From positions 9,354 through 73,353 of the forward strand of contig CANRAV010000005.1 in NCBI GenBank assembly GCA_947628695.1: 64,000 nt of DNA. Direction: 5' to 3'. The position numbers and the translations under genes are program-made. How positions within the stretch are numbered: the first letter of the stretch is position 1; every line of letters begins with the position of its first letter. The notes beneath the pieces were generated by a model. It saw nothing but the letters and a program-made list of their open reading frames with translations, was not told the origin of the DNA and ran no database searches. The stretch is from an uncultured Clostridia bacterium (lineage in GTDB: Bacteria > Bacillota > Clostridia > Oscillospirales > CAG-382). Below, one piece after another: positions 5,696-56,337 of the stretch.

Positions 5696-5714
5696 GACTT
5701 CTTGTTTTTAGAAC

Positions 5715-5790
5715 CAAAGGCAGAATTCCTTTGGGAACCCAATCCGGCAGCGCAGGACACGTCCCTGTGCTGCCTCTCTTTTTTGCACGT
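5715..5790 (+). terminator. Repeat module B' with an intrinsic terminator-like hairpin
   Basis: ccaaagg-cagaatt-cctttgg, then ggcagcgcagg/cctgtgctgcc followed by a T-run, just after the stop at 5695. Confidence 0.6.
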
Positions 5791-5849
5791 TTTGGCGATT
5801 TTGCCCTTTTATTATTTTTTGGCCGAGCTTTTTTCGCTTTTATTATTTT

Positions 5850-6049
5850 GGCCGAGCCCCGGCTCGGCCTTGTTTTTATGAAGGGACTCGGTCCCTTCAT
5901 GGCTGTTTTGGGTTAGGCTTATAGAAAAACACAGCTTTTTAGACCCAAAGGGCACAGCCCTTTGGAAACCCAATTTGGCAGCGCAAGTCGCGCCTCCGCC
6001 GTGTAAAGGTCGATCACACGTATGAAGCCCTTCATCTATTGTACCGCGC
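5850..6049 (+). repeat. Intergenic palindromic repeat module B (full length)
   Basis: Hairpins ggccgagccccggctcggcc, atgaagggactcggtcccttcat and ccaaagggcacagccctttgg; homologous to 27377-27578 and 47136-47315. Confidence 0.9.
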
Positions 6050-6059
6050 AAATGCCTCC

Positions 6060-6380
6060 GACCGCGAGCAAAGCGGGAGGCGGCGCAGCCCGCCCAAAAA
6101 CGCGAGCGGAGCGAGCATATAATCAATAACGAATTTTCCGCGGACAGGTGCCGCGGAAAATTCTCCTTGGATTCCCGCGAGTGCCTACCCCTCACCCCCA
6201 CGGGGTGGGGGTAGGCGCGAGACGCGAGTGAACGGGAATCTATAATAAACCGAAGGCTCTTGGAAAAGCCGTGCTTTTCCAAGAGCCAACCTTTTAGCCT
6301 ATTTGGGGGTGCCCCGAAAATCGTCAGATTTTTGGGGGAAATAATTCGGGGTCCCCGAAAAGCCGTAAGGCTTTTTGGGG
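6060..6380 (-). repeat. Repeat module A, copy 2, plus small hairpin module C (6348-6380)
   Basis: Near-identical to 128-410; C module ggggtccccgaaaagccgtaaggctttttgggg abuts the mscL stop. Confidence 0.9.
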
Positions 6381-6872
6381 CTATTTCTTTAGCAAGTCTC
6401 TGATTTCGGAAAGAAGAGCGTTGTTCTTCTCCTCAACGGTGGGCTCCGGCGGGGTCTCGGGCGCTGCCTCTGCCTCCTCGTGCTGCTTTTTAAGCAGCTT
6501 CTCCGCAAGCTCTATACGCTTCTTGTTGAACACCATCGCGGCCTTGATTATAACGAACAAAACCAGCGCCACAAGCAGGAAATCGACCACGGCCTGCATA
6601 AACGAGCCCCAGTAAATAGCCGACTCTGCCGTCATTTCCCCGGTCGCTATGTCAAGCTCTGCCGGCTTAAGAACCGTCTTAAAGTCCGAAACCGACACTC
6701 CGCCAAGCAGGTATGTAATGCCCGGCATGATGATTTGGTCGGTCAGCGCCGTAACAATTGCCTTGAAGGAATTACCGATGATAACGCCGACTGCCATGTC
6801 GAAGATGTTGCCTCTTGAAATGAACTTCTTAAACTCGGTGAAAAAGCCTTTTTTTCCGTCTTTTTTTGACAT
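6381..6872 (-). CDS. mscL: Large-conductance mechanosensitive channel
   Basis: EFKKFISRGNIFDMAVGVIIG; C-terminal LLSEIRDLLKK. Confidence 0.96.
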   Translation of the reverse strand: MSKKDGKKGFFTEFKKFISRGNIFDMAVGVIIGNSFKAIVTALTDQIIMPGITYLLGGVSVSDFKTVLKPAELDIATGEMTAESAIYWGSFMQAVVDFLLVALVLFVIIKAAMVFNKKRIELAEKLLKKQHEEAEAAPETPPEPTVEEKNNALLSEIRDLLKK

Positions 6873-26017: not shown

Positions 26018-26135
26018 CCAAAGGGCACAGCCCTTTGGGGGGTATTTATTTTTTCAAAGGGCACAGCCCTTTGGAACCCAATTTGGCAGCGCAGGCTGCG
26101 CCTTTGCGATGTAAAGGCTGCCTGCACGTATGGGG
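26018..26135 (+). repeat. Partial repeat module B (two ccaaagggcacagccctttgg hairpins)
   Basis: Matches the 3' half of 5850-6049. Confidence 0.85.
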
Positions 26136-27376: not shown

Positions 27377-27672
27377 GGCCGAGCCCCGGCTCGGCCTGTG
27401 TTTTTATATGAAGGGACTCGGTCCCTTCATGGCTCTCTGAATTAGGCTTATTTAAAACAATAGCTTTTTAGGCCCAAAGGGCACAGCCATTTGGAATCCC
27501 GAGCCGCCAACGCAGGCTGCGCCTTTGCGGTGTAAAGGCTTGTCACACGTATGAAGCCTTTCATCTATTGTACCGCGCCGCACTTCCCACCCGCGAGCGA
27601 ACGGGAATCTATAATAACTGAAGGCACCCCGGAAAACCGCGTTTTCCGGGGTGCCAACCTTTTAGCCTATTC
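27377..27672. repeat. Composite repeat: module B (27377-27578) joined to internally deleted module A (27591-27672)
   Basis: Same B-A junction (atctattgtaccgcgc) as at 6033-6049. Confidence 0.9.
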
Positions 27673-27708
27673 GGGATCCACGCCGTGTACGTAGTGAGTG
27701 GTGGGGAA

Positions 27709-35866: not shown

Positions 35867-36006
35867 CGGAAGGACTCGGTCCTTCCGGGTTGAGTTTACA
35901 GAAGGACATAGCTTTTTTGACCCAAAGGGCACAGCCCTTTGGAAACCCGAGCTGGCAACGCAGGCTGCGTCGCAGCGATGTAAAAGCTTGTCACACGTAT
36001 GAAGCG
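35867..36006 (+). repeat. Partial repeat module B
   Basis: cggaaggactcggtccttccg and ccaaagggcacagccctttgg hairpins, ending in cacacgtatgaagc. Confidence 0.85.
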
Positions 36007-36112
36007 CTTCTGCGGATATTTTTTGGGCTGCAGCACAAGCTCCGTGCTGCAGCCCATTTTTTCCGAATCTTTGTTTTTGCCGCACCGTCTTCCTGCTTGC
36101 AAAATAACACCT

Positions 36113-46009: not shown

Positions 46010-46240
46010 CGATTTTCGGGGGACCCCCATTGTGACTAATAGGTTGGCTCTTGAGAAAGCGCGGCTTTCTCAAGAGCCTTCAGTCATTATAGATTCCCGT
46101 TCACTCGCGTCTCGCGCCTACCCCCACCCCGCGGGGGTGAGTGTAGGCACTCGCGGGAATCCAAGGAGAATTTTCCGCGGTACATGCCCGCGGAAAATTC
46201 GAGTTTTATTGTATGCTCGCTTCGCTCGCGGTTTGGACGG
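45953..46240 (+). repeat. Repeat module C plus module A (inverted relative to 128-410 and 6060-6380)
   Basis: Reverse complement matches 6060-6380. Confidence 0.9.
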
Positions 46241-46260: not shown

Positions 46261-46398
46261 TTGACAAATTGCGCGGGCGGGTATATAATAACAAATAGAA
46301 AGGGCGCCGCCGATAAGCGGTTGGCCCCAAATTAGTTGGCTACCTACTTAAAAAAGTAGGCGATCGTCACTGTTGGAGTCAGTGGCGGTCATTTTTAT
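46261..46398 (+). ncRNA. Candidate antisense antitoxin sRNA, locus 1, extra copy (promoter included)
   Basis: TTGACA-17-TATAAT (46261-46289); no ORF; cctactt/aagtagg hairpin; terminal hairpin plus T-run. Confidence 0.65.
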
Positions 46399-46488
46399 TA
46401 GTGAAGAAGTAATAGTGAATAGTGGAGAAGTGCGGAAGAAAAAGCTCCCGCTTTTTCTACTTTATTTTGAAAAAGCAAATGAAAACGC

Positions 46489-46626
46489 TTGACAAATTGC
46501 GCGGGCGGGTATATAATAACAAATAGAAAGGGCGCCGCCGATAAGCGGTTGGCCCCCGTAACGCTTTTAACCTACTTAAAAAAGTAGGAGACCGTCACTG
46601 TTAGGACCAGTGGCGGTCATTTTTTG
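46489..46626 (+). ncRNA. Candidate antisense antitoxin sRNA, locus 1, cis copy (promoter included)
   Basis: Identical promoter (46489-46517); terminator overlaps the 3' end of the peptide ORF on the opposite strand. Confidence 0.7.
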
Positions 46627-46714
46627 CACACTTTACGATCGTAACGACCAATTGAATAAGGTCGCATATCGCGCTTATAAACACGAAGACCGCTTCATAT
46701 GTACTAAAAAACAT
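46601..46714 (-). CDS. Small hydrophobic peptide, putative type I (holin-like) toxin: MFFSTYEAVFVFISAICDLIQLVVTIVKCAKNDRHWS
   Basis: Strong SD (aaggagggagg), one TM helix, TYEA motif, basic tail; below the ORF-track size limit. Confidence 0.75.
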   Translation of the reverse strand: MFFSTYEAVFVFISAICDLIQLVVTIVKCAKNDRHWS

Positions 46715-46820
46715 AAGCCTCCCTCCTTCCCCTCGCTTAGAGAGCGAGAAAGGAGGAGCCAACCGCCTACCGTTATGGCAAACGCCCGGACGCCGCCGCT
46801 ATGGCAAACGCCCAAAGCTT

Positions 46821-46848
46821 ATTATACACTTTCAGCAAAATTTGTCAA
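46821..46848 (-). promoter_or_regulatory. SigA promoter for peptide mRNA, locus 1
   Basis: TTGACA-16-TATAAT on the minus strand. Confidence 0.75.
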
Positions 46849-47135
46849 GAGGAAACCGCTGCACAAACAAAACTTGTGCAGCGGCGCTGTTTTAGTGAAG
46901 AGTGAAGAGGTAAGAGTGAATAAGTGCGGAAGAAAAAGCTTCCGCTTTTTCATTATTATAATATTGCACAAATCCAACCGTAGTATCGCGTATTCATCGA
47001 ATATCTTTGATATTTAGTTTGCTTTAAGAATTTAGCCGCATATCAGCACCTGCATATTTAAATCAAATAACGTCCGCCAAAGGCGGACACCGCACTCCTT
47101 CGCTCTTCACTATTACTTCTTCACTTCGCCCCGCG

Positions 47136-54360: not shown

Positions 54361-54386
54361 GCGTTTTTCCTGTTTTGCCCGGCAGA

Positions 54387-54755
54387 CCGAGGGAAAAAGA
54401 GCGCAGACGGGGCGAACAAACAGGTAAGCTGTACTTAGTACTGCAAGGCTTTGTTCGTCACGAGCGAAAAAATTTAAATTAAATATGCGGTTAGCGGAGG
54501 CGAAAGCCGACGGTAACTTCCTTAGAGTCATTATTTACTTTTTCGCGTTCGGTGCCTTTTTCACCGGCCAGGCCGAGGGAAAAAGAGCGCAGACGGGGCG
54601 AACAAAGCCGCCAGCTGTACTTAGTACTGCAAGGCTTTGTTCGTCACGAGCGAAAAAATTTAAATCAAATATGCGGTTAACGGAGGCGTAAGCCGACGGT
54701 AACTTCCTTAGAGTCATTATTTACTTTTTCGCGTTCGGTGCCTTTTTCACCGGCC
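54387..54755 (+). repeat. Tandem direct duplication of a ~183-bp structured unit (period 186 bp)
   Basis: 54387-54569 and 54573-54755 are nearly identical. Confidence 0.92.
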
Positions 54756-55562: not shown

Positions 55563-55590
55563 TTGACAAATTCAGCAAAATATGTATAAT
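55563..55590 (+). promoter_or_regulatory. SigA promoter for peptide mRNA, locus 2
   Basis: TTGACA-16-TATAAT. Confidence 0.75.
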
Positions 55591-55700
55591 GTAGTCGAAG
55601 GGCATAGCCATATCGGTGTGCGGTCAGCCCCTCCTCTTTGCCGCATCTTTTGATGCGGCAAGTACTCGCTTTCTCAGCGAGGGAAAGGGGGGACGCTTTT

Positions 55701-55817
55701 ATGTTCGTTACTTATGAAGCTTTCTTCGGCTTCTTTGATGTAATCTTAGGCGTTTTGAGCCTTATTACGTCCATTGCAAGCCTTGTAATAGCGATTATTA
55801 ACTCGCATAAAAAATGA
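55701..55817 (+). CDS. Small hydrophobic peptide, putative type I (holin-like) toxin: MFVTYEAFFGFFDVILGVLSLITSIASLVIAIINSHKK
   Basis: G-rich SD, TYEA motif, one TM helix, KK tail; paralogue of 46601-46714. Confidence 0.78.
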   Translation: MFVTYEAFFGFFDVILGVLSLITSIASLVIAIINSHKK

Positions 55818-55947
55818 CCGCCACTGCTCCGAACAGTAGCGGTCTCCTACTTATTTTTTAGTAGGTAGATAACTTCGTGAGGGGCTGACCGCATATCGGC
55901 TTTGACCCTTCGACTTTTATTATACACTTCTCACGTCAATTTGTCAA
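55808..55947 (-). ncRNA. Candidate antisense antitoxin sRNA, locus 2, cis copy (promoter included)
   Basis: TTGACA-17-TATAAT on minus strand (55947-55919); same hairpin layout as locus 1; terminator overlaps the peptide stop. Confidence 0.7.
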
Positions 55948-55955
55948 GTGTTTTT

Positions 55956-56092
55956 AATAAAAATGACCGCCACTGCTCCAACAGTAGCGGTCTCCTACTT
56001 TTTAAAGTAGGTTAATCGCAACACGAGGGGCTGACCGCATATCGGCTTTACCCTTCGACTTTTATTATATACTTCGGGAAACTGTTTGTCAA
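55956..56092 (-). ncRNA. Candidate antisense antitoxin sRNA, locus 2, extra copy (promoter included)
   Basis: TTGACA-17-TATAAT on minus strand (56092-56064); body nearly identical to the cis copy. Confidence 0.65.
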
Positions 56093-56121: not shown

Positions 56122-56337
56122 TCAATCTCCCGCAAGCCTCTCCTCTTTTACTTCCTCAAGGGAGATATCGTTTTGAAGGACGCCGAAAAGCGACTTCGCC
56201 GCATCTACGCGCTCTTGAAACGGATTTGTAAGCTTGGAGATAACCTTTCCGTTGCGTGTAATATAAATATCCTCCGTTGCGGAGAGCAGCAGATACTTGC
56301 TTAAATTTGTTTTCAGCTCCGTCGCGGTGATTGACAT
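56122..56337 (-). CDS. Phd/YefM family type II antitoxin (no cognate toxin adjacent)
   Basis: ITATELKTNLSKYL...EDIYITRNGK. Confidence 0.88.
   Translation of the reverse strand: MSITATELKTNLSKYLLLSATEDIYITRNGKVISKLTNPFQERVDAAKSLFGVLQNDISLEEVKEERLAGD

Follow-up and report, generated by a model that had tools for sequence, protein, structure and literature searches.

The window, which is the whole 64,000-nt stretch of contig CANRAV010000005.1 (assembly GCA_947628695.1) that was analysed, carries at 46261..46848 (locus 1) a short ORF on the minus strand and two tandem sRNA genes on the plus strand (Table 1). All six promoters of this locus and of its paralogue, locus 2, match the consensus at 12/12 positions. 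From the promoter to AGGAGG the toxin leader at locus 1 is ~100 nt long. The predicted toxin message is ~300 nt, and the cis sRNA, which spans about 46524-46625 (~105 nt; a 116-bit match to our covariance model R1), is fully complementary to its last ~105 nt. The terminator hairpin upstream of the toxin promoter also precedes other cassettes in the genome; at locus 1 it would guard the cassette against read-through. A sequence-only reading of this DNA had proposed a minus-strand ORF of 37 aa (46601-46714), which translation bears out, and had placed its Shine-Dalgarno sequence (SD) within a hairpin, in agreement with the minimum free energy (MFE) fold, where AGGAGG is paired 7 nt before ATG. 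The same architecture was claimed for the paralogous locus, and 55563-56092 does contain a promoter, a 38-aa ORF and two sRNAs.

Table 1. Features of the two cassettes, numbered from the first nucleotide of the window
Feature	Position	Strand	Basis or remark
Locus 1
Intrinsic terminator	46855..46885	-	terminator scan; immediately 5′ of toxin promoter
Toxin promoter, TTGACA-16 nt-TATAAT	46848-46821	-	12/12 consensus, sigma-70-type; conserved in 22 cassettes
Extra 5′ leader hairpin	46788..46813	-	MFE folds; insertion in cassette alignment
Outer closing helix, 5′ strand (GGGCGTTTGCC)	46777..46787	-	MFE pairing with 46530-46539; covaries
Conserved 5-nt asymmetric bulge AUAAC	46772..46776	-	in leader, missing from sRNA 5′ domain
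Inner closing helix, 5′ strand	46754..46771	-	3′ end CUCC overlaps anti-SD
Anti-SD/SD hairpin	46716..46758	-	AGGAGG at 46727-46722, 7 nt before ATG
Toxin ORF, 37 aa + stop	46714-46601 (codons to 46604, stop 46603-46601)	-	translation; paralogue alignment
sRNA terminator hairpin + T-run	46590..46625	+	terminator scan; overlaps final toxin codons
sRNA mid hairpin CCTACTT...AAGTAGG	46571..46588	+	
Hypervariable linker, predicted single-stranded	46558..46570	+	candidate cassette-specific contact
Closing helix, 3′ strand in toxin mRNA	46530..46557	-	complement of sRNA 5′ domain; U-rich tract next
cis sRNA promoter, 17-nt spacer	46489..46517	+	12/12 consensus; points towards ORF
Second, tandem 'orphan' sRNA gene	46261..46397	+	promoter 46261-46289, terminator 46362-46390
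Locus 2
Paralogous cassette	55563..56092	+	same layout as locus 1
Toxin promoter	55563-55590	+	
ORF, 38 aa	55701-55817	+	
Two sRNA genes	promoters 55947-55919 and 56092-56064	-	

The mid hairpin and the terminator hairpin are common to all four sRNA copies of the two loci, as had been noted from the sequence, and the terminator scan calls the shared hairpin on the sRNA strand only, in 4/4 copies. Over the promoter and the first ~45 transcribed nt (75 nt compared) the tandem orphan is 99% identical to the cis sRNA; the two have the same 5′ domain and different linkers. The extra leader hairpin is restricted to the locus-1 subfamily and is a duplicate of the outer-helix sequences.

The locus-1 peptide starts MFFSTYEA and has a hydrophobic core and a basic tail; by its sequence it is a putative membrane toxin, and it presumably resembles BsrG. 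An intact hydrophobic ORF is present in 20 of the 22 paralogous cassettes of the genome, and the peptides form one alignable family (30-91% identity to the first sequence). Pfam and NCBIfam scans of the locus-1 and locus-2 peptides returned nothing credible and no Hol_Tox match. Among the paralogue peptides, 4/19 match Pfam Hol_Tox (PF16935) at E<1; L047 (the C23:349 cassette, 28 aa) scores 28.5 bits, above the gathering cut-off of 23.3, and L048 scores 21.4 bits, below it. The locus-1 and locus-2 peptides are placed with these Hol_Tox paralogues because of their paralogy in the peptide alignment. In two cassettes, L039 (G000 C8:74712-75106) and L049 (C25:18070-18445), the toxin ORF is damaged, in one case because 27 nt are duplicated internally and in the other because the start codon is lost; both still have promoters, helix arms and an sRNA gene. 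The conserved sRNA terminator stem (46601-46625; the same site in L029-L050) has two readings among the toxin genes: the TGA in AAAAAATGACC serves some cassettes as their stop codon, and in others the frame continues and the stem codes for a KNDRH(WS) tail.

Several repeats surround the cassettes. A ~75-nt repeat on the plus strand (46394-46469 and 46892-46951) consists of a purine-rich run of AGTGAAGAAGTAA-like units and then an intrinsic terminator hairpin, and has 45 BLAST matches in the genome, often directly after another terminator. We considered it as a third cassette component and rejected it: only 7 of the 45 copies lie at most 500 nt from a cassette, so that we regard it as an independent genome-wide element. 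Other intergenic direct-repeat families of 40-190 nt, some with hairpins, lie at 139-415, 5708-6390, 26047-26132, 27442-27675, 35890-36026 and 46020-46130, and no intergenic repeat family of the window matched Rfam at the gathering threshold. A 186-nt unit is present in two tandem copies, 92% identical, at 54369-54740. Locus 2 is adjoined by a minus-strand ORF of 71 aa (56122-56337), which by eye we take to resemble a small type II protein antitoxin.

The two ends of the toxin message are complementary. The sequence-only reading had listed a pairing of 19 bp between leader and 3′ region whose four non-Watson-Crick positions are all G-U, and our count is the same: leader 46772-46754 pairs with 46557-46539 over 19 contiguous bp, 15 of them Watson-Crick and four G-U or U-G, against a longest run of 15 (mean 9.1) in 1000 mononucleotide shuffles of the 3′ region. 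An outer helix of 10 bp joins 46787-46777 with 46539-46530; because the first C-G pair of the 19 competes with it, the MFE structure uses 17-18 of the 19 bp plus the outer helix. Full-length MFE folds of both loci contain the long-range helix, with the outer helix joining the very ends, and the folds have z = -7.8 (locus 1) and -11.0 (locus 2), with 0/100 shuffles as stable. Between the loci the helix core differs on both sides in a compensatory manner, as had been claimed (GCGGTCAGC/GCTGACCGC at locus 2, GCGGTTGGC/GCCAACCGC at locus 1). Closure of the message on itself, the first ~45 nt with the last ~30 nt, is strongly supported by covariation among the copies described below, and so is its form: a 10-bp outer helix, a 5-nt bulge and a 17-18-bp inner helix with G-U pairs.

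A BLAST search with the cassette yields 56 matches in the window's genome (1.97 Mb, 87% complete, in 38 contigs). An sRNA profile search gave 29 matches, 26 of them full-length, and R1 finds the same 26; they comprise 22 complete cassettes and four sRNA genes without a toxin, three of which stand in tandem beside a cassette. Among 150 further genomes of the same family, R1 has matches in 12 (7 of 12 in the same genus), with 1-6 copies each; among 150 more, drawn from across the order, it has matches in 8, with scores of 30-44 bits. The 24 family-level matches that we inspected resolve into 21 complete cassettes from 10 genomes, two non-cassettes and one match cut by a contig end. Twelve of the 21 cassettes encode an unrelated peptide of 22 or 23 aa (starting MDY or MEY) and keep the leader and the 3′ arm; in L060, L061, L075, L078 and other relatives with such a different 22- or 23-aa peptide the mid hairpin is missing and the arms are almost unchanged. 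Tandem arrays also occur among the relatives' cassettes, two in G004 C15 and four in G053 C16. Of the ten order-level matches inspected, eight proved to be cassettes; they come from other families of the order and encode further, different short hydrophobic peptides. In six of these eight an automated duplex search gave a closing helix of -44 to -54 kcal/mol (shuffled means -19 to -36); for the remaining two it started from an incorrect promoter, and both arms can be recognised by eye.

Scans of larger collections were keyed on the terminator to avoid conditioning on the helix arms. The genome-collection scan contained five true loci (six cassettes) among nine matches, all in genomes already sampled, and the metagenome scan one true cassette among seven; the other matches of both scans were chance hits in unrelated phyla. 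Named records with this family are uncultured 'Eubacteriales' or 'Clostridia' gut MAGs, and the sequencing runs that contain the window stretch are DNA only, from rabbit-gut and other gut metagenomes. Rfam gave 0 matches at gathering thresholds over the whole window, and when the two loci were scanned by E-value every match was a chance one, far below threshold. We found no description of this cassette family in the literature searched.

For the helix we aligned 43 cassettes from 11 genomes (22 from the window's genome and 21 from relatives), trimmed from outer helix to outer helix; the count excludes a metagenome cassette, L094, which has an A-C mismatch and a hairpin insertion. Paralogues and relatives in this set are non-independent samples. 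Cassettes were chosen by short motif patterns for both arms, and the covarying columns lie outside those patterns. Over the 27 helix pairs 94.7% of 1158 cells are paired, compared with 31-50% when the partner is slid by 1-3 columns. Two-sided changes occur at 11 of the 27 pairs (95 cells); the sequence-only reading had proposed to test for such covariation among homologues from related genomes. Column shuffles reached the observed pairing, covariation score or double-change counts in 0/500 trials (four of five measures); the fifth measure, the count of further pair types, was unexceptional (144/500 shuffles). On a tree from the non-helix columns, the five pairs that are Watson-Crick only need at least 13 state changes and pairs with wobble intermediates up to 14 each, figures that are rough lower bounds, the tree being a quick one on short, possibly recombining sequences.

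The wobble pairs indicate the strand on which selection acts. Read as mRNA, the inner helix has 112 wobble cells (G-U 87, U-G 25) and 14 A-C or C-A cells, 11 of which belong to a fixed 2-nt internal loop of the cassettes with the other peptide; among the 12 cassettes with MDY or MEY peptides this loop (A-C + A-G) is found in 11 and a single A-G mismatch in one. Read on the other strand, each of the wobble pairs would be a mismatch. The sRNA terminator hairpin has its wobble (U-G) on the sRNA strand, which would be C-A on the mRNA strand, and this reverse polarity is an internal control that the wobble test can tell strands apart. Helix pairing, compensatory change and wobble polarity across the 43 cassettes therefore support selection at the RNA level, as proposed from the sequence, and the promoter spacers, which are not alike, agree. 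Since the 3′ arm also templates the sRNA 5′ domain, covariation by itself fits both pairing of the leader with that arm and a need for leader and sRNA to be alike; the two are told apart solely by the bulge and the polarity of the G-U pairs.

The two arms might instead be an inverted duplication at the DNA level, kept alike by gene conversion or as a shared 5′ module (a stabilising hairpin or a protein site), with the mRNA ends unpaired in vivo. The leader and the sRNA 5′ domain are indeed homologous from the transcription start onward, and the conservation of the leader core CGGTAGGCGG far exceeds what pairing demands: columns 32-40 are nearly invariant in the 43 cassettes, which hints at a sequence-specific role, although they are partly fixed by our selection, since the cassettes were picked with arm motifs. 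However, the arms are never identical; column 33 is G-U in 42/42 scored rows, a fixed G-versus-A difference between arms. A second wobble lies one position apart in the window's genome and in relatives, and through this shift the leader stays GG and the pairing is kept. The 5-nt bulge is conserved in the leader only, and the excess of wobble over A-C or C-A cells points the same way. Likeness of leader and sRNA ends at the transcription start: toxin promoter spacers are AT-rich and 16 nt long, those of the sRNAs GC-rich, 17 nt long and unrelated, which argues against plain homogenisation of an inverted repeat in DNA. We consider a DNA-level origin of the likeness quite improbable.

The closest architectural match is bsrG/SR4 of the B. 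subtilis prophage SPbeta. There, as here, the gene of a small hydrophobic toxin faces a convergent antitoxin RNA that can pair with the 3′ portion of the toxin mRNA; a long helix (P1) links the 5′ ~35 nt of the message to its 3′ region, and a short GC stem contains the SD. SR4 is ~180 nt long and the sRNA here ~105 nt. A terminator stem-loop of its own follows P1 in bsrG, whereas here there is only the 3′ arm and a U-tract. In the sections of PMC3834814 on which we draw, nt 1-35 of bsrG mRNA pair with nt 232-262 to form P1 and the SD lies in a 4-bp stem; SR4 binding leaves nt 1-33 unpaired and lengthens the SD stem from 4 to 8 bp, and the longer stem lowers bsrG translation, besides RNase III-dependent decay. 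By the mechanism proposed below, the antitoxin here would likewise free the 5′ strand and lengthen the SD stem. The bsrE/SR5 pair has a very similar structure and another toxin, according to the part of the review PMC6562991 that treats it, so that bsrG/SR4 and bsrE/SR5, like the cassettes here, have related RNA scaffolds with different toxins. This likeness is one of architecture, set against the published description; Rfam gives nothing near threshold here. Unlike bsrG/SR4, the family here has 22 cassettes in one genome, some with a tandem second sRNA. The hosts differ as well: the passages of PMC6562991 on distribution place txpA/bsrG-like systems in only a few Bacillus species and one Paenibacillus, and ours are uncultured gut Clostridia.

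Other known systems share parts of this design. The B. subtilis txpA/RatA pair is also type I, with a 3′ overlap and a masked SD; TxpA and BsrG are put in one toxin family in the portion of PMC6562991 cited here, and RatA binding leaves the SD stem unchanged in the accounts extracted from PMC3834814 and PMC6562991. In fst/RNAII (par, Enterococcus faecalis) the genes are convergent and share a terminator region, as they do here, with a second contact via the 5′ parts (summarised in a section of PMC3834814); 5′ repeats make the two par RNAs mutually complementary, whereas here the 5′ parts are same-sense and the sRNA imitates the leader.

We read locus 1, with a probability of about 0.7, as a type I toxin-antitoxin cassette built like bsrG/SR4. 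The local anti-SD hairpin would keep the SD masked, and the closing helix would stabilise the full-length message and conceal part of the sRNA target. The sRNA 5′ domain complements the 3′ strand exactly and is consequently almost identical in sequence to the leader, which makes sRNA and leader competitors for that strand. The sRNA could dock via its single-stranded hypervariable linker or via hairpin loops and would then displace the leader from the 3′ arm. Because the leader pairing contains G-U pairs and a bulge, the sRNA should always win thermodynamically; in 22/22 cassettes the predicted duplex with the 3′ arm is more stable for the sRNA 5′ domain than for the leader (mean -76 vs -52 kcal/mol). 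The long sRNA-mRNA duplex would mark the message for RNase III. The last bases of the leader, CUCC, can pair with either the 3′ arm or the SD region, and in a freed leader they may extend the SD-masking stem.

Constrained folds at locus 1 do give a longer SD stem once the sRNA site is blocked, with little change in ensemble accessibility. The predicted unpaired probability of the SD is 0.10 in the nascent message, 0.16 in the closed one and 0.10 with the sRNA site blocked, computed for 18 of the 22 cassettes, the other four, locus 1 included, having failed an ORF filter. As these states are nearly equal, a translational effect of displacement is unsupported by thermodynamic prediction, and the translational arm of the model is an inference. 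The idea that the helix opens translation was rejected, since the accessibility predicted for the initiation region increases by little, from 0.25 to 0.33. Keeping the message stable, or holding it latent in the manner of hok, may equally be what the helix does.

Latency as in hok or aapA1 would make the helix primarily an off-switch that locks the message in an inert and stable form, with toxin made only after 3′ trimming. Long-distance pairing of 5′ and 3′ ends is a recognised descriptor of type I toxin mRNAs in the material that we use from the T1TAdb paper (PMC8594479), which cites Franch et al. 1997 on 3′-end processing of hok mRNA; in hok/Sok and aapA1/IsoA1 it serves to control the toxin mRNA (PMC8594479 and PMC6733600, as excerpted), and the helix here uses both extreme ends of the predicted transcript. 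The SD, on the other hand, is predicted to be masked by the local hairpin with or without the helix, and bsrG is not known to need 3′ processing, as far as the sections of PMC3834814 and PMC6562991 devoted to it go. In hok/Sok and aapA1/IsoA1 the antitoxin targets the 5′ or translation-initiation region and the message is activated once its 3′ end has been trimmed, whereas here the antitoxin covers the 3′ strand of the helix and is complementary to the 3′ 105 nt only. Because the sRNA overlaps the 3′ end, such trimming would also remove the target of its 5′ domain. We think a latency function of this type unlikely.

Were the helix chiefly a stalk for RNase III processing, or else the toxin gene's terminator, it would have no part in regulating antitoxin access. 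A ~28-bp imperfect duplex joining two ends does resemble RNase III stalks, and a local hairpin (-16 kcal/mol) is available to the 3′ arm, with UUUCUAUUUGUU after it at locus 1 and CUUUUAUUAU at locus 2. At locus 1, however, shuffled sequences are just as stable as this hairpin (z = 0.16), it is absent from the terminator calls, and the conserved G-U polarity is explained no better than by displacement of the leader. We regard such a role as very improbable.

The sequence-only reading had suggested that the covarying bases may insulate the two loci from each other. At best this stands between classes: the helix core could separate such classes as locus 1 and locus 2. Cassette by cassette it fails. 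The 26 sRNAs of the genome have 19 distinct 5′ domains (mean identity 80%) on only five helix-core variants, and the 5′ domain of locus 1 is found exactly in five sRNAs, with nine others within 2 differences. One-to-one insulation by the helix core is ruled out by the five identical 5′ domains; sRNAs that share a 5′ domain cannot be told apart singly by the core. The linker of 13-17 nt between the 5′ domain and the mid hairpin has a mean identity of 33% and a predicted unpaired probability of 0.74 in the sRNA and 0.59 in the mRNA, compared with 0.26-0.37 for other domains. This hypervariable linker is the better candidate for specificity, and may provide a cassette-specific first contact.

A broader scheme, which we offer tentatively and think somewhat unlikely as a whole, would unite these loci in a gut-Clostridia superfamily with one RNA chassis (leader, 3′ arm and leader-mimicking sRNA 5′ domain) on which toxins are swapped. 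The linker would be a barcode for each sRNA, so that 22 mutually orthogonal cassettes could share one 2-Mb genome, and a common factor, such as an RNase or a chaperone, would use the near-invariant leader core as its handle on all of them.

The kind of system, a type I toxin-antitoxin pair with a 3′ overlap and a 5′-3′ helix, is already known. What is new is the family itself, with its spread in uncultured gut Clostridia and its 22-fold expansion, together with the finding that toxins are exchanged while the RNA scaffold is conserved and that the helix has phylogenetic support. An antitoxin-opened 5′-3′ helix in a toxin mRNA was previously based mainly on structure probing in one or two Bacillus systems; through their compensatory changes, more than 40 diverged copies now support this design in an uncultured group that is only distantly related, in which the RNA scaffold outlives the toxin that it carries. 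The cassette set could seed an RNA family model that is missing from Rfam. It is also a ready panel for asking how many antisense-controlled cassettes coexist without cross-talk, a matter relevant to engineered RNA devices (PMC12721322).
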